64,000 nt of DNA from a virus. This document shows positions 12,554-40,073 of this stretch, piece after piece. The position numbers were made by a program, and so were the translations under genes. Location of the stretch: the UHGV virus genome UHGV-1383976; one strand, given 5' to 3'. Numbering within the stretch: the first letter of the stretch is position 1; every line of letters begins with the position of its first letter. The notes under the pieces are model-generated. The model worked only from the letters and a program-made list of their open reading frames with translations. It did not search any database and had not been told where the DNA came from.

Positions 12554-13138
12554 ATGTCAAAGAATTTTTACATTAGTGACACCCATTTTGGACACGCTAA
12601 CATTCTGAGATTTGATAGACGCCCATTCAATTCTGTTGAAGAAATGAACGCCGCGCTCATCAAGAATTGGAATGACGCAGTTGACCCGAATGACAATATT
12701 TACATACTGGGCGATTTTTGCTGGGGCAAGTCTGATGAATGGATTGATATTTTGTCTCAGCTCCAAGGCAACAAATATCTTATTGCAGGCAACCATGACT
12801 TGCGTAATCCTCCTTCTACTGTGCGGCGGTTCTTTCAGGATTGGCGCGACTACAAAGAAATTTCTAACAACGATCGTAAGGTTATAATGTGTCATTATCC
12901 GATTCCATTTTACAAGTCAGATTACAACTCAAACACTTATATGTTATTTGGTCATTTGCATACAACATTTGAGAATGAATATCTGGAAAATTTGCGATAT
13001 CAAATAGAAAATGATCCTTATGAGCGGCCAGCCAAAAATCTTTGTCAGTTTTATAACGTCGGCTGTATGATGCCGTGGATGGACTATACACCGCGCACAT
13101 TGGATGAAATTGTAGATGGATTTGCTAAGTTCCATTGA
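12554..13138 (+). CDS. calcineurin-like metallophosphoesterase
   Basis: DTHFGH, GDF, GNHD motifs. Confidence 0.65.
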   Translation: MSKNFYISDTHFGHANILRFDRRPFNSVEEMNAALIKNWNDAVDPNDNIYILGDFCWGKSDEWIDILSQLQGNKYLIAGNHDLRNPPSTVRRFFQDWRDYKEISNNDRKVIMCHYPIPFYKSDYNSNTYMLFGHLHTTFENEYLENLRYQIENDPYERPAKNLCQFYNVGCMMPWMDYTPRTLDEIVDGFAKFH

Positions 13139-13702: not shown

Positions 13703-13707
13703 AAAAT

Positions 13708-13795
13708 GCGGGATGAACTCAGACGGCTCTGAAACCGGTCTTGAAAACCGTGGGCAGGCAAAACCTGTGGGGATCGACACCTCCGTCCCGCGCCA
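13708..13795 (+). tRNA. tRNA-Ser(TGA)-like, type II
   Basis: acceptor gcgggat/gtcccgc; anticodon cggt-cttgaaa-accg; non-canonical T-arm (tgggg-atcgaca-cctcc). Confidence 0.5.
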
Positions 13796-13885: not shown

Positions 13886-13973
13886 GCCCCATCTTCAGTT
13901 CTATAGCTGGTGAAGATGGATAGGCGATGAAGTATAGCAATAATATGGCATGAGAACTATGATAGTGTTTCAT

Positions 13974-14061
13974 GAGAGCGTAACTCAGTCGGTAGAGTTT
14001 TATAGCGTGAAGGGATATGCTATTGAATGCCCTTAGTCGCCAGTTCGAATCTGGCCGCTCT
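13974..14061 (+). ncRNA. tRNA-like element with aberrant anticodon region
   Basis: good acceptor (gagagcg/cgctctc), D-arm (tagagtt), and T-arm (gccag-ttcgaat-ctggc); ~17 extra nt where the anticodon arm should be. Confidence 0.4.
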
Positions 14062-14091
14062 CATTAAAAATATATATGAAGAGGAATAGTT

Positions 14092-17029: not shown

Positions 17030-17059
17030 TTGACTTTTTCAAAAAATCTTGATATAATA
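17030..17059 (+). promoter_or_regulatory. family-A promoter driving the noncoding region
   Basis: TTGACT-18-TATAAT; downstream transcript is ORF-free. Confidence 0.55.
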
Positions 17060-17079: not shown

Positions 17080-17805
17080 GAAAAAGTCAAAAGGAGGACA
17101 ATGCTAGTGCCACCTACACGTGGTGTCCTCTGTTTTCGCTAAGAGCGCTGGCATATATCCAATTAAATAATACTAACTCAGTGAAGACGGAATTCGATGT
17201 TCCGGCTGAGAAATTCCAGCTAGCACAGCAGAAACGAAACAAGGATACTTGTGGATACTGGACTGAGAGGCCATCGAGAGATGAGCCGAAGTAGAGCGGT
17301 CGCTCAAGTGGGAAGAAGAGCAGGAATTGTGCTGAGTGAATCGCAAGCAAACGCAGCCGTGGAGTGGCGAGCGCAATAGACAGCTTGGTGAATAGCCAAG
17401 CCGAACCCAAGTTAGGTCTTAGTTGGTGCCTGTGGCAATCCTTGGGAAAACCAATAAGCTCGTTCCGTTGAGACGACAGGGAATGTGAAATCTGTCTTTG
17501 ACACTCTACAGCATCCGAGTAGCGGAACACAACGGGGACTTATAGAAAAGATGGTCAGTAATAATAGAAATTGCTATTTTATCTTTCTGAACATCCCGTG
17601 AAAGGTAGAGGTAATCAACCCTCTGGCGGATTAGGCGACATTAGACACTTGGGCTATCCAAGAGTAACAAGTCAATGTTGTTGCTGGGGTAAGAAGTGTA
17701 TGGGCGACGGCCTGTATGCTCAGACTTATCTCCCGCGTGGCAGAATATGCTTGAAGGTTTATCGAGGTAGGGCGAAGGCCCAGTAATATTTAGTTGGATT
17801 TATAT
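17080..17805 (+). ncRNA. candidate large structured ncRNA (~700 nt, GC-rich, ORF-free)
   Basis: no credible ORF on either strand; GC content clearly above flanks; promoter upstream; tRNAs on both sides. Confidence 0.45.
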
Positions 17806-17806
17806 G

Positions 17807-17878
17807 GCAGGACGAGAAGGTTCTCCATTTGGCCTCATAAGCCAGATTTCGTGGGTTCGATTCCCACTCCTGCATCCA
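17807..17878 (+). tRNA. tRNA-Met(CAT)-like (short D-arm)
   Basis: anticodon ttggc-ctcataa-gccag; T-arm gtggg-ttcgatt-cccac; CCA; 4-nt D-loop. Confidence 0.45.
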
Positions 17879-17881
17879 TAT

Positions 17882-17956
17882 GTCGTATTGGTGTTAGTGG
17901 CAGCACGATAGCCTTCCAAGCTATATGGAGGAGTTCGAGTCTCCTATACGACTCCA
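17882..17956 (+). tRNA. tRNA-Gly(TCC)
   Basis: acceptor gtcgtat/atacgac; anticodon atagc-cttccaa-gctat; CCA. Confidence 0.65.
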
Positions 17957-18102
17957 TTTTAGAAATGTCTTGAACGACAGGAGGTTTTGCTTATGGATAT
18001 AACAAAATCTAATGAGGACTGCGGTCCAACGAACAGGACAAAGAGTTGGGCCTCTCTATAAAAAGGCCCTCGTAAGAAAATTTGGAAAGGAAGTAAAGTA
18101 AA

Positions 18103-18516
18103 ATGAAGTATTATAGTGATGTTCTTCATACGCTGTTTGATACTCAGGATGCGCTTGAGGAAGCCGAAGCGAAGAAAACCGCGGCAGATGCTGAGAAAGT
18201 ACATGCAAAAGAAACGGCTAGAAAACGTAGAGAAGAAGATAAAGAACGTTTCCTTGAGTTGAGAAAGAAGTTCAATAAGATCAGCACTGAGTATGACAAG
18301 ACATCTAAAGAGTATATGGACTATGCTGATAAGATGATGCAGGAGTATTCATTAGATGCTGTGCTGGATTGGCTTTCTGATGCTTTTCTTTATGATTGTG
18401 CCACAGCTAAGACGAAAGCAGATGCATCATCTACCACAACTGCTACCACGAAAACTGCGCGGGAGCCTGAAAACTTGGGAGAAATTCTTGCCCGTATTTT
18501 TGAGGATATGCGCTGA
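18103..18516 (+). CDS. hypothetical charged coiled-coil protein
   Basis: RBS + ATG; ORF. Confidence 0.5.
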   Translation: MKYYSDVLHTLFDTQDALEEAEAKKTAADAEKVHAKETARKRREEDKERFLELRKKFNKISTEYDKTSKEYMDYADKMMQEYSLDAVLDWLSDAFLYDCATAKTKADASSTTTATTKTAREPENLGEILARIFEDMR

Positions 18517-18519
18517 GAA

Positions 18520-19080
18520 TTTTGAATAAATTGGCGCGATTGATTATCAAATCGTCCCACGGAGTTGAAGCTAAAACGTTAGCGGTGAATATGGCCATTC
18601 CCGCAAGCTCGGCGGTTTGTTAGGCAACCGCGCGGATGTAAATTATTGATAGGAAACTTTGGTTTAATTTACTCACTGAAGTTCTCCAAAAGTCGAACTA
18701 GAGCCTAAACTGAGTTCGCAGTGCTGAGGCCGGCATACGCTCGGAGAGGATGCGTTATTGAGCTAATTGGATTAGTGTCAATGTGAGGCAACGGTGGCCA
18801 ACTCTTAGAGAGCCACGCGACAGAGTTATGCTAAAAGGCAATGCCCAGTATCGGTGCCACTAGGGTTGATAGACAAGTAGTAAAAGTCAGGTGAAGACAA
18901 TACCGGCTGACATAATTGGGACGTAGTCATAGGCGTAGGCCGTGCCAAAACTAAAAATCAAAGTGTGCGGCACACGAAACCCAAGTCAGATGCGGGCGAT
19001 TGAAACGGCGCCCTCAACCCATATAAGGTTTTACAAGAGATTTTCCTTGTGTTAGACTAAAAAATCTCTTTTTTGTATAA
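18520..19080 (+). ncRNA. candidate large structured ncRNA (~560 nt, GC-rich, ORF-free)
   Basis: no ORFs; GC-rich; immediately upstream of tRNA-Gln. Confidence 0.4.
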
Positions 19081-19084
19081 ATTT

Positions 19085-19159
19085 AGAGGTATAGTGTAAT
19101 TGGCAACACATCGGCCTTTGACGCCGTATTTATAGGTTCGAGTCCTGTTACCTCTGCCA
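19085..19159 (+). tRNA. tRNA-Gln(TTG)
   Basis: acceptor agaggta/tacctct; anticodon loop ctTTGac; CCA; terminator follows. Confidence 0.6.
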
Positions 19160-19266
19160 ACAGTTCCACATTAGAAAAACCTAATGTGGACTTTTTTATA
19201 TATATCAGCTACAAAAAATCTACTTAGAAATGCGGGCAACCGCAAAACACATCAAAGGAGGAGCCT

Positions 19267-19901: not shown

Positions 19902-20222
19902 ATGGATAAATATACTGGCTATTATGAGTGGCATCCATCAGAACAAGGACTTGAGGATTTTTATTCTGGCCTTTTTACACCTGCAGGGATGGGCTTGGTT
20001 GAAAACCAGTATTTGATTATCTATGACTCCGAAGATAAGGTTATAGATAAATATTTTTGTAAGAACAATGAATTTGAAAAGGTTCATTATATGGCGCTTC
20101 AAAGCGATTACTGTGGGGTTATCAAACCACGCAATGTATATCAGGAATTGGCTATTCATTCCCTTATGGATAGACGTGTTCCCGTAAAAGTTTTGGGTGG
20201 CGTCTTTGGCTCGGGTAAATAA
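19902..20222 (+). CDS. phoH: PhoH-like ATPase, exon 1 (ends inside the Walker A GGVFGSGK)
   Basis: ORF stops immediately after GSGK; continuation found at 21150. Confidence 0.55.
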   Translation: MDKYTGYYEWHPSEQGLEDFYSGLFTPAGMGLVENQYLIIYDSEDKVIDKYFCKNNEFEKVHYMALQSDYCGVIKPRNVYQELAIHSLMDRRVPVKVLGGVFGSGK

Positions 20223-21149
20223 CTTGCCCCTTCTTAGGGCGACCTAAGAATGAAAATCGCGTGAATTGCTGGAAGCCTAAGCCGCAAGGTATGGTAATCA
20301 GCAGCCAAGCCGTTTTAGCAACGGAAGGTTCAACGACTATCCCGGCAGGGAGTAGGGAGCAATCCCGAAGCGCGCGACAACTTTTGTTTTGTTTTTATTT
20401 TAATAAAGGAGGTGAGGTTATAAATAAGTGGACAGATGAACAAAAAGCAGAAATTATTGATGATTATACCAAAAAAGGTATGACTTTGGCAGAGATTGGA
20501 AAAAAATTTCATTCTAAAGGAGATACAATTAGTAAATATCTAAAGTCTTGGGATATTCCCATCAATCGTAGAAAGAAAAATCGGCTTATGAATGAAAAGT
20601 TTTTTTCTATAATTGACTCAGCTGAAAAGAGTTATTTTCTGGGCTTGTTATTCGCTGATGGTTCAGTTGTTTTAAATAGCGAGCGGGCGCCATATGTTTC
20701 TTTAGAATTAGTAGAAAAGGACAAAGAAATATTAGAAATTTTCCGTTCATTATTAAATTGTCAAAATGACTTATACTACAATAAGCGAGATAATCGGAAG
20801 AATGGAACATATACTTTTGGAGTAAGAAGTCAATTACTAGCTGATGATTTAGCTAAATTTAATATCATTCCAAATAAAACTTATGAAACAACCCAAGTAA
20901 TTTTCCCAGAAAATTTTCTTATTGATTTTCTAAGAGGGTATATTGATGGCGATGGCTCTATTTATCAAAATGTTTATAAGGCCGTTTGGAATGGACAAGA
21001 TGCTAAACGAATTATAAACATTCTCTATTTAAAGAACGATGGCATTGCGCTCTCTCGAAAACGAGAACGAGCTAAGTTAGCTCAACAAAACAAAAGTTGA
21101 TGATATAGTCTAATCCCTTTTTAAAAATATCGGGAAACCGAGGGTATAA
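20223..21149 (+). mobile_element. putative group I intron with LAGLIDADG homing endonuclease
   Basis: interrupts PhoH between Walker A and downstream motifs; ~180-nt structured non-coding 5' part. Confidence 0.55.
20420..21100 (+). CDS. LAGLIDADG homing endonuclease (two motifs) with N-terminal HTH
   Basis: LGLLFADGS and LRGYIDGDGS; no canonical start after RBS aaaggaggtga; frame open from 20261 through intron RNA. Confidence 0.65.
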   Translation: MNKWTDEQKAEIIDDYTKKGMTLAEIGKKFHSKGDTISKYLKSWDIPINRRKKNRLMNEKFFSIIDSAEKSYFLGLLFADGSVVLNSERAPYVSLELVEKDKEILEIFRSLLNCQNDLYYNKRDNRKNGTYTFGVRSQLLADDLAKFNIIPNKTYETTQVIFPENFLIDFLRGYIDGDGSIYQNVYKAVWNGQDAKRIINILYLKNDGIALSRKRERAKLAQQNKS

Positions 21150-21683
21150 ATGAAGGATCTTCTAATGAGCGGGGCTTGTTTTAGCTTTATCGAAAAAGGT
21201 ATTTTTGAAAAACTTGTTTATATACGCCCCAATATCACGCTTGAAGGAGTGCCTGATATTGGCTACCTCAAAGGCGGAATGGACGAAAAGCTTGAATGGA
21301 CTTTAGCTCCATTATGGGATAAGTTCGGTGGCCGCGAAGCTACTCAAAATCTTGTTGCTTCTGGCAAGATTGAGCTTGTAGCCTTACCTTTTATCAAAGG
21401 TCGCAGTTTTGAAAACAGCATTATTTATGTCAGTGAAGGCCAGAACATTACTCGTAAAGTCGCTGGCAATATTATTAGTCGCGCTGGTGAGGGCACTGAA
21501 ATTTGGATAAATGGCGACTATCACAGTCAGACCGATCGCAGAATGTTTGAGGTTGATAATGGTATGCGTGCGATGGAGGAAACCCTGAAAGGCAATGCGC
21601 TCTATGAAACTATTTATCTTCCTATTACAGAGCGTTCTGCTGTAGCTCAACTTGCTGGAATTGTTTGTAACACTGAAAATTGA
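21150..21683 (+). CDS. phoH: PhoH-like ATPase, exon 2
   Basis: IIYVSEGQNIT and IWINGDYHSQTD match PhoH DEAQN / TGDxxQxD motifs. Confidence 0.55.
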   Translation: MKDLLMSGACFSFIEKGIFEKLVYIRPNITLEGVPDIGYLKGGMDEKLEWTLAPLWDKFGGREATQNLVASGKIELVALPFIKGRSFENSIIYVSEGQNITRKVAGNIISRAGEGTEIWINGDYHSQTDRRMFEVDNGMRAMEETLKGNALYETIYLPITERSAVAQLAGIVCNTEN

Positions 21684-32142: not shown

Positions 32143-33138
32143 ATGATAGGCGTAGACCTAAATCAATATCGTAATCTACCTGATTACGCACAACTTAAAA
32201 AGGATGGTTATGAGTTCGCCATTATAAAACTGGCAACTGGTGTAACCTTTACTAACCCGCTTTTTCAAACCCAGTTTAGTGGTTGTAAGTCAGCCGGCCT
32301 AAACATCGGCGTTTATACTCGTGCCGACAAGCAACCTACAAGCGGCGCACAGGAAGCTGCCTATGCACTCAACATACTAGGTAATCGTCATGTAGATTTC
32401 CCCATCTACTATGACGTAGAGGGAGAAACACTAAATCTTTCAAAAGACAAGCTGACTCAGCTGGCTCTTGATTTTGGTAAAGCAATAAAACGCGCAGGAT
32501 ATCGCTGGGGTATTTATACATCCCGCGCACATTTCAAATGCTTTGACCTTGACAGGCTGAAAGAAGCTGGCGCATCTATATGGTGCGCCGCCTATGATAA
32601 TCAAGCTGGTATGGAGTGCGACATTTGGCAAAAGTCAGATAAAGGCTCTATTACAGGATATTCTGGACCAGTTGATGTAGATGTTTTATATAATGAAAGC
32701 ATAATACAGAAGGAGGAAAATAAAATGAGTTTGAATTTGATAAAATGTTTTCAAACACAAGGCGCGTGGTATAATCAAACCACAAATGGAACTCCTGTTG
32801 GGGTATGTTGGCACGATACCGGCGCTGGTAACCCAACATTGAAGCGCTATGTCCAGCCATCTACTAATGACCCCGATTATAATTATTTTATAAACCTTAT
32901 CGGCAAGAACAATAATGGCAATCACTGGAATCGTATGGCCGCAAATCAGGCAGGATTGAACGCTTGGATTGGTCAACTCGCGGATGGCAGTGTTGCTACT
33001 GTTCAGGCTGGCCCTTGGGAAAAGCGTCCTTGGGGTGTTGGCTCTGGCAGATACGGTTCACTTAATGGTGATAAGAATGTGCCTAATGATAAGTTTTGGA
33101 TCCAGTTTGAGATTACATCGTTGCTAGTCTCCGCGTAA
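32143..33138 (+). CDS. endolysin exon 1 (GH25 muramidase + N-terminal half of amidase_2)
   Basis: IGVDLNQY...GYEFAIIKAT (GH25); VCWHDTGAGN...GSLNGD (amidase_2 front half). Confidence 0.65.
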   Translation: MIGVDLNQYRNLPDYAQLKKDGYEFAIIKLATGVTFTNPLFQTQFSGCKSAGLNIGVYTRADKQPTSGAQEAAYALNILGNRHVDFPIYYDVEGETLNLSKDKLTQLALDFGKAIKRAGYRWGIYTSRAHFKCFDLDRLKEAGASIWCAAYDNQAGMECDIWQKSDKGSITGYSGPVDVDVLYNESIIQKEENKMSLNLIKCFQTQGAWYNQTTNGTPVGVCWHDTGAGNPTLKRYVQPSTNDPDYNYFINLIGKNNNGNHWNRMAANQAGLNAWIGQLADGSVATVQAGPWEKRPWGVGSGRYGSLNGDKNVPNDKFWIQFEITSLLVSA

Positions 33139-34182
33139 AGCGATTTGCGTGTAAAAATACATATCGAATTGCTGGAAAACCGTAAAGCTATTCTTGCTAC
33201 AACGTAAGGATGAAACAAGCCTAAGCGTGAAAGCCGCGAAAGCAGAAAGAAAAGAATAGATGGCGTATGGTTAAATCCTAAGCGCTATATAATTGGCAAT
33301 CAGCAGCTAAGCCTTGAATAAAGGAAAGTTCAACGACTAAGTGCCTTGCAAGCGATTGGCAAGGACAGTGGTATGCGGCTCATTGAGCCGAAGATATAGT
33401 CTGTGCTTCGAGAGAAATCCGAAGGAGCGAAAGCTCAGTGCGGGGTAGCGCCCAAAAAGTTTATTTTGAATGGAGAAAGAAATGACTTATAAAGAATTTA
33501 TTGACAATATTTTAGAAGAACGAGGACGTTTTTCGTGTGGAGAGGAATATCACGAGAGGCATCACATTCTTCCTAAGTGCAAAGGCGGCACAGATGATAA
33601 AGAAAATTTGATTGACTTATTTGCTAAAGAGCATTTTATTGCGCATAAATTGTTAGCTGAAGAAAATCCTGAAGATATAAGTTTGGTTAGGGCTTATCAA
33701 TGCATGACAATAGCTAGAAATCCAAAAACTGCACGATATATTGCTTCTTCTGAAGAGTATGAGGAAGCAAGAAAAATGTTTTCAGAAGCTCTCAAAGAAT
33801 TATATAAAGACAAAACAAAGCATCCAAGCTATGGCAAACATATTAGTGAAGAAAGAAAACAACGAATTAGTGAAGCCAATAAAGGAAATAAGTATTGCGT
33901 TGGCCGGAAAGTTTCAGAAGAAACACGCAAGAAAATAAGTGAAGCCAATTCGAACCCTTCCGCCGAAACGCGTGAAAAAATGAGTCAATCTCAAAAGAAG
34001 CTCGCACGGTGGGATGGAGCAAAGAATCCTAAAGCTCGAAAAGTTGTTCGTCTTTCTGATGGGAAAGTTTATGATTGTATTAAATATGCCGCCGAAGAAA
34101 ATAATATTCCTCTCTCCACTTTCAAAAGTAGATTACACAAAGGCAAAGGCGATTTTGTGTATTTCGAAGACTATCAAAATAA
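33139..34182 (+). mobile_element. putative group I intron carrying an HNH endonuclease
   Basis: 330-nt GC-rich ORF-free 5' segment + HNH ORF; splits the amidase_2 domain. Confidence 0.55.
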
Positions 34183-34192
34183 ACAGCACTAA
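33470..34192 (+). CDS. HNH homing endonuclease with NUMOD-like repeats
   Basis: HHILPKCKGGTDDKENL..HF.AH HNH motif; repeated ISEE/EANKG modules. Confidence 0.7.
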   Translation: MEKEMTYKEFIDNILEERGRFSCGEEYHERHHILPKCKGGTDDKENLIDLFAKEHFIAHKLLAEENPEDISLVRAYQCMTIARNPKTARYIASSEEYEEARKMFSEALKELYKDKTKHPSYGKHISEERKQRISEANKGNKYCVGRKVSEETRKKISEANSNPSAETREKMSQSQKKLARWDGAKNPKARKVVRLSDGKVYDCIKYAAEENNIPLSTFKSRLHKGKGDFVYFEDYQNKQH

Positions 34193-36358: not shown

Positions 36359-37564
36359 ATGCTTGATGTAAAAATTTTTGCACGTTGTATTGAACAGACC
36401 GCTGAAGAGCAAATATACGATTTAGCCGCCTCGTCGATAGGAGAAAACGCGCACATACGAATAATGCCGGATGCGCACGCTGGTAAGGGATGCGTAATTG
36501 GAACTACTATGTTAGTAAAAGATAAGATTTGCCCTAATATTGTTGGCGTTGACATTGGATGCGGAGTTACTGCTGCAAAAATTAACTGTCCTTTGATCAT
36601 GGATGAGTTAATGTTTTTGCGCGAACGCCTTGTAGATGGCGCAATACCATCAGGAAGCACTATATACAACGAATTTAGAGATTGGGATCCTTTTTTTGAA
36701 CTTGGCGCAACTATCCTTCGTAAGTTGAGATGTAAGGAAATTTACAATAAGTGTGAAATTGATTATTTTGCTAAGTCTATGGGAACACTCGGAGGCGGAA
36801 ATCATTTCATTGAAATAGACGAAGACTCCGATGGCAATCATTGGATTGTTGTACATACTGGCTCGCGCAATTTGGGCCTTCAGGTAGCAAAGTATTATCA
36901 AAACAGAGCAGAAATGCGAATTCTTGAAGAATATACTCACAAGCGTAATGCAGCTATCACTACGCTGAAAGAGGAAGGCCGCCAGCGTGAAATTTCAGAG
37001 GTATTAGCCTCTATCAAAAAAGATGCGCCATCTAAGTTTGATTATTTAGTAGATAATGACTATAATAACTATCTTCGCGATATGGCACTTTGTCAGAAGT
37101 GGGCAAAATATAACCGAGCAAATATTATTTATAACATTGCTGCAATTTTAAATCGCAAAGTTACAATGACAGTTGAGTCAGTTCATAACTATATAGATTT
37201 TTCAACTCAAACACCTATCCTCCGCAAGGGCGCAATTTCGGCTAAGTATGACGAGATTTGTCTTATTCCACTCAATATGCGGGATGGTACGCTACTGTGC
37301 CGTGGAAAAGGTAACTCTGATTGGAACTTATCAGCTCCACATGGAGCCGGACGACTTATGTCTCGCGCTCAGGCAAGAAAAGAATTATCTTTAGACGAGT
37401 TTGAAAAATCAATGGACGGCATTGTGTCAAACGTTTGTGCAGAAACCATTGATGAAGCACCTTTCGCTTACAAGAATTGGGAAGAGATTGAAGAAGCTGT
37501 GCGGCCTACCGTTGAAATTATTGACCACTGGAAGCCAATTTTCAATTTTAAGGCGATGTCTTAA
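36359..37564 (+). CDS. rtcB: RtcB RNA ligase (3'-phosphate/5'-OH)
   Basis: MPDAHAGKG, GVDIGCG, GGGNHF.E, HTGSR.LG, HNY, RKGA, SAPHGAGR motifs. Confidence 0.8.
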   Translation: MLDVKIFARCIEQTAEEQIYDLAASSIGENAHIRIMPDAHAGKGCVIGTTMLVKDKICPNIVGVDIGCGVTAAKINCPLIMDELMFLRERLVDGAIPSGSTIYNEFRDWDPFFELGATILRKLRCKEIYNKCEIDYFAKSMGTLGGGNHFIEIDEDSDGNHWIVVHTGSRNLGLQVAKYYQNRAEMRILEEYTHKRNAAITTLKEEGRQREISEVLASIKKDAPSKFDYLVDNDYNNYLRDMALCQKWAKYNRANIIYNIAAILNRKVTMTVESVHNYIDFSTQTPILRKGAISAKYDEICLIPLNMRDGTLLCRGKGNSDWNLSAPHGAGRLMSRAQARKELSLDEFEKSMDGIVSNVCAETIDEAPFAYKNWEEIEEAVRPTVEIIDHWKPIFNFKAMS

Positions 37565-38246: not shown

Positions 38247-39083
38247 ATGATAAATCCGCAGGAATATGTAAATAAGGCATATCAGCTTGGCGAAAAGGTT
38301 TATGGTAATCGTCTTATATTCGCCGCACATTACGGCTCTTTCAATTATGGCCTTGCCGATGAGGAAAGCGATTGTGATGTCGCTCTTATTGTAATGCCAT
38401 CAATGGAGGAAATTGTAAGGTGTGAAAGCTCCAACACTCCATTGAAGCACGTTCCTGAAGGCGACATTGATGTAATTGATGTTCGCACTTTTGTTAGACG
38501 ATTGGCTAACGCTGAGCTTAATTCTCTTCAGTATCTTTATGCGCCTTATCACAAGTGGAATGAATATTGGAATGATACTTTCGCGTCTCTTCACGGCAAG
38601 TTTCTTTGGGATATTGCTATGATAAATCCGTATGAACTTTTCTATAATATGCGGGGTGTAATAGCCCGCGCAAGTAAGCGAATGGATAATGTTAGTGAGA
38701 AAAATCCCTTTAGTCCATCTTGCTCTAAAGCTATTTATAATGCAATGCGAATGATCGACCTTGCGAACGCATTCGCTGATGATATTGAGGAAAATGGTCT
38801 TGGCACTTATAACGACATCAATATATTTTCTTGGGAGTATGGTGTTCATAGTAGGAAGGACTTGATGGCAATGAAACGCGGTTTATATTCATACACAACC
38901 GCCCGCGATTGTATTGATTCGTGTATGAAAGAAATTGATAAGTTCCATGATATATTTATCAATGAGGACAATGAAACCATAGCTTTGGATAATCGTGCGG
39001 TACAGCGTCTTGAGCGAATGATTGAAGGCGCTCTCATTAAACTTTACTTCAATGAAGCGGCTACACCAAAATTTTGGTCATAA
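38247..39083 (+). CDS. Pol-beta-superfamily nucleotidyltransferase
   Basis: GSFNYGLADEESDCDV (GS...DxD). Confidence 0.6.
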   Translation: MINPQEYVNKAYQLGEKVYGNRLIFAAHYGSFNYGLADEESDCDVALIVMPSMEEIVRCESSNTPLKHVPEGDIDVIDVRTFVRRLANAELNSLQYLYAPYHKWNEYWNDTFASLHGKFLWDIAMINPYELFYNMRGVIARASKRMDNVSEKNPFSPSCSKAIYNAMRMIDLANAFADDIEENGLGTYNDINIFSWEYGVHSRKDLMAMKRGLYSYTTARDCIDSCMKEIDKFHDIFINEDNETIALDNRAVQRLERMIEGALIKLYFNEAATPKFWS

Positions 39084-39116: not shown

Positions 39117-39143
39117 ATATATAGAAAGTGAGAGAGAAATATG

Positions 39144-39221
39144 GGCCGGATAACTCAGATGGTAGAGAACCAGTGCGGTTAGGCGCTGGAGGAGGCGGTG
39201 GTTCGAATCCACCTCGGCCCA
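39144..39221 (+). tRNA. atypical tRNA-like (7-bp anticodon stem, 6-nt loop GGTTAG)
   Basis: perfect acceptor ggccgga/tcggccc and T-arm ggtgg-ttcgaat-ccacc; non-canonical anticodon arm. Confidence 0.4.
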
Positions 39222-39224
39222 ATT

Positions 39225-40073
39225 AGATATGAAGGCGACATACAGTTATTATAGTCGCCGGACGTACTGCTCCGTCCATTACGAACAGAGCAGCCCCGCA
39301 AAACGAGGGTGAGAGTTGAGTTTGTTGGTTTTACTTGAAACCGCCGTCGGGGTAAGTGGCGTTACATCTTACCAAAAAAATCCGTCTGACTGCAGTAAGG
39401 GCGGTTGGTTTGTAGGTTTGCCAATAGGTATAAGTCTAGATACCAATAAAATACTTACCAAAGAGGAGTAATATGGCTGAAGTCCTCCAGCGTGGTTGAT
39501 ATGTTGAAATGCCTAGGCCACGCACATATGTCAGTTTAGTTTAACGAGGGAAAACAACGCCCGTCAAGGCGTAATTTCGGGTTCGAGTCCCGAAACTGTC
39601 CTTGGTTTGACAGGCCAAGAAATTTGTCAGGTGCGGCCCTTTGTCGCCGGTCGAGACTCCGTCCGGAAATGAGCTACGTCTAAGTAAGAAGCGTGAACTT
39701 AGCGCTGATGTGCGTGATGCATCGGTTGCGTGTCCAAAACACGACAGGTTTGGTTGAGTTTTCTACACAAAATTCAATTGGGTCAGGCCGCCCACAGGAT
39801 GGCCGCGGGTTCCACTCCCCGAACGAAAAACAATCGGGAAATCTCTTGTTTTTCTCAATTTTGTTAGTAGTTAGTCGCATTGATGAAATTGCTTTTTGGA
39901 GTAAAGTTGTGAGTAGCTAAAGAAATGACAATTCTTTTTCTACTCAAAAAGCCAAGTATCCGCCTCTGCTTGGACATCCGCGCGAGGTTGCGTGTTGATG
40001 AAAAGCGTGGAAGGCAGTTATATAATGGGGACTGCCGCATAGTTGGTTTAGGAGAGTTGCCAGCTACGGAAAT
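39225..40073 (+). ncRNA. candidate large structured ncRNA (~850 nt, GC-rich, ORF-free, with tRNA-like modules)
   Basis: no ORFs; embedded T-arm-like cgggttcgagtcccg; same transcription unit as the flanking tRNAs. Confidence 0.45.

Follow-up and report, generated by a model that had tools for sequence, protein, structure and literature searches.

We found that an ORF-free block of a human-gut phage genome (UHGV-1383976), situated between an ORF and a tRNA gene, likely gives rise to a large structured non-coding RNA absent from the Rfam catalogue, predicted to be about 470–550 nt long, a candidate for a new class. The window, i.e. the whole stretch of DNA analyzed, is 64,000 nt long. We regard the block as a real large structured phage RNA that is probably new. 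The view that it represents a functional new class has good support short of proof, as all the evidence is from a single narrow clade of phages. The features of the locus are as follows.

17030–17058, + strand: near-consensus promoter (TTGACT-17-TATAAT with TG) upstream of ROOL
17153–17800, + strand: ROOL RNA (RF03087; 271.8 bits, gathering score 99.1)
18103–18516, + strand: ORF137, 137 aa (ORF list)
18517–18531, + strand: conserved spacer GAAUUUURAAUAAR from the ORF stop to the leader hairpin (alignments A4 and A7)
18532–18559, + strand: leader hairpin (folding of variants)
18570–19034, + strand: core of the predicted RNA, 465 nt (RNAalifold model, pair counts)
18570–18581 / 19024–19034, + strand: H1, predicted long-range closing helix of the core (model)
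18582–18719, + strand: 5′ domain with hairpins H2, H3, H4 and H5 (compensatory changes in H3–H5)
18720–18858, + strand: central domain, containing H8–H11 (covariation; covariance model R2, 168 bits)
18720–18727 / 18851–18858, + strand: H6, long-range closing helix of the central domain (closing-pair variation)
18732–18736 / 18841–18845, + strand: H7, long-range helix of the central domain (pair variation)
18863–19020, + strand: 3′ domain, predicted five-way junction with tRNA-like spacing (covariance model R1, 188 bits)
19035–19074, + strand: A-U-rich stem-loop (AAGAGAUUUU / AAAAUCUCUU), then a U-run (folding)
19085–19159, + strand: tRNA-Gln (UUG) with encoded CCA (ARAGORN; Rfam tRNA, 63.4 bits)
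19165–19197, + strand: intrinsic terminator ending the transcription unit (10-bp stem 19165–19190, then CTTTTTT)

The block extends from the stop codon of ORF137 to tRNA-Gln. It has no ORF longer than 40 aa (18517–19084; the longest are 37 aa on the + strand and 40 aa on the − strand). Its GC content is 44.7%, and that of the core (18569–19036) is 47.6%, a value matched by only 5% of 468-nt windows, vs 39.8% for the window; the enrichment is real but modest. The preliminary description of an ORF-free, GC-rich block ending directly at a tRNA and followed by a terminator thus holds, the GC part of it modestly; the block at 17080–17805, said to share this signature, contains the ROOL RNA. The block was present at the same position in every related contig recovered with enough sequence downstream of ORF137 (about 28 contigs counted, with 20 distinct sequences). 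It adjoins tRNA-Gln within a cluster of 12 tRNAs. The phage, of ∼130 kb, has at least 15 tRNA genes, and RtcB, a nucleotidyltransferase (38247–39083) and a phosphoesterase are among its other products; ROOL, encoded on the same strand, lies 770 nt upstream of the core. The tRNA content of the cluster turns over, as tRNA-Gly (17882–17956) is present or absent among relatives.

All six frames of the block have 7–16 stop codons each, with TAA, TAG and TGA mixed, and its variable positions, counted by position modulo 3, are distributed as 34/29/26 with no 3-base periodicity; in the ClpP-like gene next door the variable positions fall 10/5/62 at first, second and third codon positions. The block is non-coding. 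One could think of a protein gene in an alternative genetic code, as recoded stop codons occur in gut phages and odd tRNAs are present in the window at 39142 and 39530; however, at least two different stop types occur several times in each frame, so that no single stop reassignment would open a frame. The mixed stops along with the absence of codon periodicity rule out a protein-coding gene, standard or recoded. A DNA element (origin, packaging site or regulatory repeat array) is opposed by the absence of internal repeats or iterons from the block, and G-U-specific, strand-asymmetric pairing indicates RNA rather than DNA. The reading as an alternative-code gene or a DNA element is already refuted, with practically no probability left to it. 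We also rejected DNA repeats, or a template of the DGR type serving the hypervariable ORF137, since ORF and block have no repeat in common.

The RNAalifold model has 148 pairs in about 19 helices and three domains; across the 20 variants (84–99% identical), 98.7% of 2825 cells are standard pairs. Double-sided changes were seen at 14 pairs in nine helices (39 cells); controls with slid partners gave 2–4 pairs (2–6 cells), and shuffling gave 6.4 ± 1.7 double-changed pairs vs the 14 observed. The covariation score was 0.096 vs 0.021–0.041 in controls. One alignment served both to derive the main model and to test it, a circularity addressed by a blind test and an out-of-sample test. When the structure was predicted from the window sequence alone, 96.6% of cells were paired (36–39% in slid controls), with double changes at 10 pairs in 23 cells vs 0–3 pairs in 0–4 cells; 29 variable pairs were maintained vs 11 broken, i.e. 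about 72% keep pairing. By the base-pairing rules we estimate that neutral single substitutions should keep pairing in roughly 25–35% of cases. Furthermore, three sequences added after the model had been fixed brought new compensatory changes in H5, H17 and H18.

With 310 G-U cells in the model, the fraction of canonical pairs was 99.0% on the + strand vs 86.3% on the − strand, which fixes + as the functional strand. Compensatory and wobble changes on one strand only, the pattern by which structured non-coding RNAs are recognized, are therefore found in the block. Several traits also resemble those of an RNA family: an optional hairpin (H17), loop indels, a leader hairpin that is hypervariable yet always folded, and unpaired columns (21.6% variable) at least as conserved as paired ones (25%).

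Covariation is silent on some of the helices, as H1 is nearly invariant and H2, H12–H16 and H19 show no variation. Independent events are far fewer than cells, since, for example, all six compensatory pairs of H9 come from one lineage. The MFE z-score of the core relative to dinucleotide shuffles was −0.07 (for ROOL, −3.7); as a test, the whole-block z-score is uninformative or negative evidence. An all-against-all scan of column covariation gave no usable signal, being swamped by phylogenetic correlation. A pairing between the loops of H4 (UUUACU) and H13 (AGUAAA), perfect in the window, was rejected on inspection as it is lost in the L123/L130 lineage.

In the 5′ domain, compensatory changes occur in H4, in H3 (from A-U to G-C) and in H5 (from G-C to A-U, in L137), and the length of the H4 loop varies among variants. 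H2 is invariant, with the loop AUGGCC. For H1 there is an alternative, a local hairpin GCUAA/UUAGC. In the central domain, the closing pair of H6 is G-C in nine variants, A-U in six and G-U in two, while pairs of H7 occur as C-G, U-G and U-A; H9 (18751–18767 / 18771–18790) has six pairs with double changes, and in H10 a U-A pair is replaced by C-G. Within the RNA, variation is lowest and folding best (MFE z = −2.6) in the 3′ domain, whose predicted structure is the same from one sequence and from alignments. Its elements come in the following order: a 7-bp stem GGGUUGA/UCAACCC, UA, a 3-bp hairpin with 11-nt loop, A, a 4-bp hairpin with 7-nt loop, an 83-nt long arm, a GC-rich hairpin abutting the 3′ strand without spacer, and a single A. 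The tRNA-like spacing of this junction (7-bp stem, 2-nt and 1-nt connectors, coaxial abutment) is a prediction in which most of the helices are invariant; compensatory or wobble changes occur in H17 and H18. The L123/L130/L136 lineage carries a deletion of H17, and there is a 7-nt indel in the loop of H18.

Upstream of the core, the leader exists in five unrelated sequence types, all of which form a hairpin (−9.7 to −13.3 kcal/mol) with no U-run after it. The hairpin is dispensable in one variant, L118, where an 87-nt deletion fuses the ORF to the RNA core. ORF137 itself had no match in Pfam, PHROG, PADLOC or PDB. Its homologues (38 clusters, 48–100% identity) show substitutions of 54/45/90 by codon position, an excess at the third position, and nucleotide identity among relatives drops to 50–57% at 18302–18481, returning to about 94% inside the RNA. 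This hypervariable ORF is probably transcribed together with the RNA. Downstream, the stem-loop at 19035–19074 has −8.9 to −10.5 kcal/mol in three divergent variants, with the outer stem kept and the inner part replaced; its predicted fold would suit a weak terminator or, alternatively, a stem at the 3′ end of the RNA. With a loop of more than 8 nt, it was not called by the terminator scan. The terminator at 19165–19197 is strong (−14.2 kcal/mol, z = −4.8).

We saw no promoter of the RNA's own between ORF137 and tRNA-Gln and no strong + strand terminator between 17127 and 19165. As, in addition, L118 fuses the ORF to the core, the RNA would be transcribed by read-through, either from the ORF137 unit or within a whole ROOL-tRNA operon starting at the promoter at 17030. 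Its 3′ end could be set by the U-tailed stem-loop, by RNase P cleavage at the 5′ end of tRNA-Gln, or by both.

Searches for known families covered the interval 18400–19260 (861 nt, permissive filters). Rfam 15 gave no match at the target, neither at gathering thresholds nor at E ≤ 10; in the same window it detected ROOL, two group I introns (67–71 bits) and tRNAs. The ROOL covariance model (gathering score 99.1 bits) had no match to the interval at E ≤ 10, and comparison of the block with the window's own ROOL by blastn (word size 6) produced only chance matches of 8–18 nt, nhmmer likewise nothing. Since the first block is ROOL and the second has no detectable similarity to it, these are two different RNAs. 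The suggestion that the block is ROOL-like thus stands for size and context and fails for homology: like ROOL, the block is in a phage near tRNA genes, with no similarity by covariance model or sequence. On the other hand, the idea of a second large structured RNA distinct from the first gained support from the absence of coding, the strand-specific multi-helix fold and the compensatory changes.

The GOLLD model had no match at E ≤ 10 on the target, nor at E ≤ 0.1 in the whole window. Models of group I and group II introns were negative at the target, and no interrupted gene flanks the block; there was no match at the target to a T-box or riboswitch model either. The tRNA model, at E ≤ 10 on 18400–19260, detected tRNA-Gln only, and ARAGORN made no call in the 3′ domain at thresholds down to 60%, be it in native form or after the long arm had been taken out or trimmed. 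We therefore rejected the 3′ domain as a tRNA or pseudo-tRNA, while retaining the resemblance in topology. A tmRNA was considered because other ROOL loci carry tmRNAs (as the second large RNA in 9 of the 15 scanned). No tag-peptide frame (ending in -AA, then stop) was present in any + strand frame, and the termini GGGG…/…CCACCA and the T-loop GGUUCGAnUCC, present in all seven phage tmRNAs from ROOL loci, are absent from the target, which has no similarity to these seven sequences. ARAGORN -m was negative at the default and 80% thresholds, as was Rfam; a tmRNA call at the target required the 60% threshold, when the 70% threshold already makes 141 calls in the window. The tmRNA identity was rejected. 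No account of this RNA turned up in the literature searched, and there was no sequence match to it in the 200 of 408 files covered from the catalogue of PMC8040213.

The 20 distinct variants, always in the same position, all belong to one clade of ∼130-kb human-gut phages; loci of relatives were gained by synteny via ORF137 homologues. Conservation alone says little, because the sequences on either side are conserved to the same degree (about 97% for ROOL, about 97% for the ClpP-like gene). We saw no homologue of the RNA outside the clade in any of the following searches: blastn against INPHARED phages found none; exact and gapped motif scans of IMG/VR found only three relatives, other matches being chance by nhmmer; a metagenome scan gave five true matches, all from the same clade, along with nine chance matches; two scans of GTDB genomes gave 0 matches; and neither nhmmer nor the two domain covariance models (R1 and R2) detected anything in 41 ROOL-bearing IMG/VR loci. 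Synteny via the ClpP-like neighbor added no further loci because this gene has no homologues below 90% identity. In attempts at host assignment, the nearest RtcB relatives were at most 46% identical and came from unrelated phages, and a 563-aa ORF had no phage match.

ROOL is an ornate RNA of about 580 nt from phages and prophages with no known function; it and GOLLD are located near tRNA genes in phages (PMC5737381; PMC12286853). The target shares with ROOL the strand, the tRNA cluster and probably the operon, and both are apparently closed by a long-range helix and have multistem junctions. However, the order of helices differs, the core of the target has only 465 nt, the folding energy of ROOL is far below that of shuffles, unlike that of the target (z = −3.7 vs −0.07), and ROOL spans several phyla whereas the target is known from one phage clade. 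GOLLD often adjoins tRNAs and sometimes encloses one, its 3′ part being well conserved and its 5′ part more variable (PMC12286853). The target resembles it in that its 3′ domain varies least and folds best; unlike GOLLD (>800 nt), the target is about half that size, has no embedded tRNA and no match to the covariance model. A tmRNA has a tRNA-like domain on a 7-bp acceptor-like stem, and for the target's 3′ domain a 7-bp stem with tRNA-like spacing is likewise predicted, but this part is internal in the target rather than formed by the RNA termini, and GGGG…CCACCA, the T-loop consensus, a resume codon and a tag ORF ending in AA are lacking. With tRNAs and viral tRNA-like structures the predicted fold of the 3′ domain has in common the 7-bp stem, two nucleotides (U, A), a short hairpin, one nucleotide, a hairpin with 7-nt loop and an extra arm; it differs in that the extra arm is 83 nt long, the anticodon-like stem has 4 bp with no U33, the T-like loop is 10 nt or internally paired, and there is no CCA. 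Catalogues of candidate RNAs from microbiomes and viruses (PMC8040213; PMC10690425) resemble this work in the source (human gut phage intergenic regions) and in metagenomic covariation evidence; unlike the target, their entries are mostly short motifs.

Other explanations of the conserved fold have to be weighed against a new RNA. The element could act in cis, as a long structured 3′ UTR of ORF137 or as a leader or processing cassette controlling the yield of tRNA-Gln (by attenuation at 19035–19074 or by RNase P/Z entry), as suggested by the lack of a separate promoter for a block wedged in between ORF and tRNA, by the leader hairpin directly after the stop codon and by the weak terminator-like hairpin at the 3′ end, directly before the tRNA. 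We consider this unlikely: a 465-nt fold of three domains closed by long-range helices is far larger than known bacterial and phage attenuators, the RNA is conserved whereas ORF137 is the least conserved segment of the region, there is no T-box or riboswitch match, and other tRNAs of the cluster have no such leaders. Still more improbable is non-functional debris (a decayed tRNA or intron, or a dead gene) that appears conserved owing to recent divergence, with covariation arising from few lineages and model selection. The equal identity of flanking genes, the small number of independent lineages and a core MFE z of about 0 agree with debris; the tRNA-shaped 3′ domain could be a relic, and tRNA-Gly turns over in the cluster. 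Against it, pairing at variable positions is kept in the blind model well above the neutral estimate, out-of-sample sequences bring new compensatory changes, the RNA boundary stays sharp while the neighboring ORF falls to 48% amino-acid identity, and the sole large deletion seen, that of L118, ends precisely at the core boundary. The preliminary description had allowed for pseudo-tRNA debris without a conserved structure; as the tRNA model and ARAGORN are negative on the block and its structure is conserved, the block is not of that kind.

A very divergent member of ROOL, GOLLD or tmRNA, unrecognized by current models, would share the context, have a size similar to that of ROOL and explain the tRNA-shaped 3′ domain at a locus type where a tmRNA is frequently the second large RNA. 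This reading is already largely refuted, and we give it very little probability, since none of the three covariance models matched at E ≤ 10 with permissive filters, sequence similarity to the neighboring ROOL and to the seven phage tmRNAs is lacking, and the tmRNA termini and a tag-like frame are absent.

If the block encodes a new large RNA, as is likely, this RNA would act in trans as a folded RNA in a phage module for take-over of tRNAs and translation, in the manner of ROOL, GOLLD and tmRNA. Tentatively, it could be a third class of ornate tRNA-island RNA besides GOLLD and ROOL, made in one operon with ROOL and consisting of a tRNA-mimic 3′ domain and scaffold domains; it might serve as a partner of ROOL or as a decoy or adaptor for the tRNA machinery while the phage repairs tRNAs and takes over translation, possibly with an assembly of its own. 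As to mechanism, the likeliest one, though well short of even odds and proposed by analogy, is that the tRNA-shaped 3′ domain engages tRNA-handling machinery or tRNAs, with the other two domains making a scaffold and possibly a higher-order assembly.

To our knowledge, bacterial and phage non-coding RNAs longer than 400 nt with complex conserved folds are very few: rRNAs, RNase P RNA, tmRNA, group I and II introns, OLE, GOLLD, ROOL, HEARO and raiA, each of them biochemically unusual. A new large RNA that probably shares the transcription unit of ROOL is a fresh candidate for structural work and a possible new tRNA mimic; as a genetic neighbor, it may help to show the role of ROOL-type RNAs in tRNA islands. 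Even if it were only a clade-restricted curiosity, ROOL-containing tRNA islands would still hold large RNAs missed by current annotation. ROOL and GOLLD form homo-oligomeric RNA-only nanocages; what these two RNAs do is not yet known, and it is an open question whether further large RNAs in nature behave in this way (PMC12286853). In this respect the invariant GGCC-containing loop of H2 may hint at homo-oligomeric assembly; it is only a lead.

The block between the stop codon of ORF137 (a 137-aa ORF) and tRNA-Gln is best described as a new family within a known kind, the large structured RNAs of phage tRNA islands. Judging from comparison of related sequences, we consider it highly probable that its RNA is genuinely structured and functional; that the family is so far uncatalogued is probable. 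The preliminary description, of an ORF-free, GC-rich block that meets a tRNA and then a terminator, was borne out: the longest ORF in the block has no more than 40 aa, GC content is 44.7% (core 47.6%, window 39.8%; the core is within the top 5% of same-size windows), and the tRNA and terminator are in place.

Features of the locus (window coordinates; strand where assigned)
10.7–19.2 kb: tRNA cluster
12554–13138: (metallo)phosphoesterase
17030–17058: near-consensus promoter TTGACT-17-TATAAT, 5′ of ROOL
17153–17800 (+): ROOL RNA (RF03087, 271.8 bits; gathering score 99.1)
18103–18516 (+): 137-aa ORF (ORF137)
18517–19084 (+): block
19085–19159: tRNA-Gln
19165–19190 plus T-run: strong intrinsic terminator
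36359–37564: RtcB tRNA-splicing ligase (PHROG E = 7e-122)
38247–39083: nucleotidyltransferase

The order 3′ of ROOL is tRNA-Met, tRNA-Gly, the 137-aa ORF, the block, tRNA-Gln, the terminator, a ClpP-like gene and a split PhoH-like gene. The block is neither coding nor a DNA element. All six frames hold 7–16 stop codons each, with the stop types mixed, and reassigning any one type would leave every frame closed. Over the three phases, the core's 89 variable positions are distributed as 34/29/26, in comparison with 10/5/62 by codon position in the ClpP-like gene. No repeats were found within the block, or common to the block and the hypervariable upstream ORF.

A model of 148 pairs was derived with RNAalifold from 15 full-length variants.

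Predicted structure of the RNA (+ strand)
18570–18581 / 19024–19034: helix H1, closing the core
18582–18719: 5′ domain, helices H2–H5
18720–18858: central domain, closed by the long-range helices H6 and H7, with H8–H11 inside
18863–19020: 3′ domain, closed by H12 (GGGUUGA / UCAACCC), with H13–H19 inside

The + strand is the RNA strand, as fixed by 310 G-U cells: canonical cells make up 99.0% on + and 86.3% on −. In an alignment of 17 sequences, standard pairs made up 99.0% of cells. Changes on both sides of a pair occurred in 11 pairs (26 cells), compared with 1–3 pairs (2–4 cells) in controls with the 3′ partners slid by 1–3 columns, and none of 500 shuffles equalled the observed number. Since the model came from the alignment on which it was tested, two independent checks were made. 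The minimum free energy (MFE) structure of the window sequence alone, projected onto the alignment, was 96.6% paired, with double changes in 10 pairs (23 cells) versus 0–3 pairs (0–4 cells) in slid controls; its helices contradicted by other sequences were those replaced in the alignment model by H6 and H7, which covary. With three variants added after the model was made (L135, L136 and L137), pairing was 98.7% and double changes rose to 14 pairs and 39 cells, the independent events being much fewer than the cells because the sequences are close, the lineages few, and all six H9 double changes come from the single L123/L130/L136 lineage. New compensatory changes included, at the base of H5, G-C to A-U, and, in both H17 and H18, C-G to U-A. 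The double changes lie in nine helices (H3, H4, H5, H6, H7, H9, H10, H17 and H18).

Helices H1, H2, H12–H16 and H19 are invariant and stand as predicted helices; H1 has an alternative, the local hairpin GCUAA/UUAGC. Against dinucleotide shuffles the folding energy of the core was no better (z = −0.07), while the 3′ domain gave z = −2.6 and ROOL z = −3.7. One lineage lacks the small hairpin H17, indels occur in the H4 and H18 loops, L137 has a shortened H11 and has lost the tip of H10, and variable columns amount to 21.6% of unpaired and 25% of paired ones. The leader hairpin (18532–18559) exists in five unrelated sequence versions, each giving a hairpin with a folding energy between −9.7 and −13.3 kcal/mol. 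All this is what RNA families typically show.

The phage containing the window (∼129–133 kb) comes from human-gut metagenomes; its RNA region is 100% the same in ENA ERZ27261302 contig k119_164321 (129 281 bp), and relatives are present in IMG/VR and also in numerous gut assemblies from ENA and Logan. By exact-motif scanning, the block was confined to close relatives (three IMG/VR contigs, five metagenome contigs), with no occurrence of two different block motifs in 185 579 GTDB species genomes. A search of 5.8 billion proteins with the ClpP-like neighbour yielded no homologue of less than 90% identity. Further copies, obtained via contigs of ORF137 variants, brought the total to ∼28 contigs with 20 distinct RNA sequences of 84–99% identity, and wherever a contig extends far enough downstream, the block lies 3′ of the ORF and 5′ of tRNA-Gln and the ClpP-like gene. 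The RNA family is, for now, confined to one gut-phage clade.

Across five genomes nucleotide identity is ∼97% in ROOL, 50–57% in the 3′ half of the ORF and ∼94% from ∼18560 on; thus, the RNA boundary is sharp, with RNA conservation no higher than that of other well-kept parts of the genome. ORF137 is hypervariable (38 clusters, 48–100% amino-acid identity, local nucleotide identity down to 50%) in a genome otherwise 90–97% identical, a pattern suggestive of either diversifying selection or a hot spot of recombination; it had no match in Pfam, PHROGs, PADLOC or PDB. In one related contig, L118, an 87-nt deletion takes the end of the ORF, the leader hairpin and CGGAGUUGA (L118 2340–2390 corresponds to window 18482–18568), and the ORF continues into the first helix of the core, where its new stop is the UAG within GUUAGC. 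Therefore, the core begins at ∼18569, and a promoter between ORF and RNA is not required, which fits transcription from upstream; scanning 17127 to 19165 for terminators gave none on the + strand. At the 3′ side, divergent variants retain an A-U-rich stem (19035–19044 / 19061–19070) with a U-run and replace its interior; the stem is weak (−9 to −10.5 kcal/mol). In any event, RNase P would be expected to cleave at 19084/19085 when it processes tRNA-Gln.

With regard to known families, the block RNA resembles ROOL and GOLLD in context and size class, but no membership test places it in ROOL, GOLLD, tmRNA, tRNA or group I introns. The Rfam scan proposed in the preliminary description (cmscan, all 4227 Rfam 15 families, permissive filters, E ≤ 10) gave for 18400–19260 only tRNA-Gln and one chance match, hence no family for the block, and a whole-window scan at E ≤ 0.1 added nothing at the target. 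Comparison with ROOL, 770 nt upstream, revealed no sequence similarity, making the block a different RNA. There was no blastn match among 50 697 phage records, and searching the window and 0.86 Mb of other viral loci with covariance models (CMs) of two domains (18861–19022 and 18718–18861) brought up no additional copy. No description of the RNA was found in the literature, two large gut/viral-metagenome catalogues of candidate structured RNAs being outside sequence-level comparison.

The junction of the predicted 3′ domain is spaced like that of a class II tRNA: a 7-bp stem (third pair G-U in two lineages), U-A, a 3-bp hairpin whose loop has 11 nt, A, a 4-bp hairpin whose loop has 7 nt, an extra arm of 83 nt, a GC-rich hairpin directly abutting the 3′ strand, and a single A. 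The tRNA CM and ARAGORN reject it, even without the long arm and at thresholds lowered to 60%; this is resemblance, not membership. A tmRNA reading was considered because nine of 15 other ROOL-bearing IMG/VR loci carry a canonical phage tmRNA (316–427 nt) ∼40–1300 nt from ROOL within the tRNA island (L094 9400–10558, L098 2520–3676, L075, L096, L111, L081, L082, L080 and L092), so that ROOL, tmRNA and tRNAs seem to form a module that recurs. The window phage itself is without a tmRNA, and the block lacks a tag-like frame, GGGG...CCACCA termini and similarity to the tmRNAs of ROOL loci; ARAGORN called it only at a 60% threshold, with 141 such calls in the window at 70%. The tmRNA reading was rejected.

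ROOL and GOLLD occur near phage tRNA islands (PMC5737381; PMC12286853). For the block RNA, a trans-acting role in a tRNA supply/repair module would be most likely by analogy with ROOL, GOLLD and tmRNA; we regard the proposed mode of action itself as rather doubtful. RtcB, the nucleotidyltransferase and the metallophosphoesterase, with at least 15 tRNAs, look like a tRNA-repair toolkit, so the genome carrying the RNA puts much into supplying and repairing tRNAs. In H2, the loop AUGGCC never varies; it includes the palindrome GGCC, and its UGGC is complementary to the tRNA 3′ end GCCA; as a lead, it could make kissing-loop or tRNA-end contacts.

Other elements were seen at these loci. A terminator-like hairpin followed by CCTCTGTTTT (17107–17126), between the promoter at 17030–17058 and the ROOL start at 17153, possibly belongs to the ROOL leader. 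Two direct-repeat copies of 37 nt with 70% identity (18004–18040 and 19215–19251; core AAAATCTAnTnAGnAnTGCGG, then a small hairpin), the only ones in the window, lie in the 5′ UTRs of ORF137 and the ClpP-like gene and are kept in relatives; they thus bracket the ORF137–RNA–tRNA-Gln unit. A RAGATH-33 RNA (139 bits) is present in another ROOL-bearing phage tRNA island (L095 6879–6991).

The tRNA-Gly(UCC) gene (17882–17956) is present in the window and in one relative (L005), with a short hairpin instead in three others (L004, L006, L069); thus, tRNA content turns over inside the clade. Unusual tRNA-like genes (13707–13792, 13973–14064, 39142–39222 and 39530–39601) include a tRNA-Sec-like match (41.2 bits, below the gathering score of 47, uncalled by ARAGORN), a tRNA-Phe of 92 nt, and two with irregular anticodon loops, given by ARAGORN as '???'. 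The PhoH-like gene (19902–20219 plus 21150–21683) is interrupted by a group I intron (20207–20482 and 20919–21132) bearing a LAGLIDADG-type ORF; several relatives (L131, L133, L115, L116, L135) have an uninterrupted PhoH gene of 256–281 aa. A second group I intron (33075–33424) lies 3′ of an endolysin-like ORF and adjoins an HNH/homing-endonuclease ORF (33470–34192).
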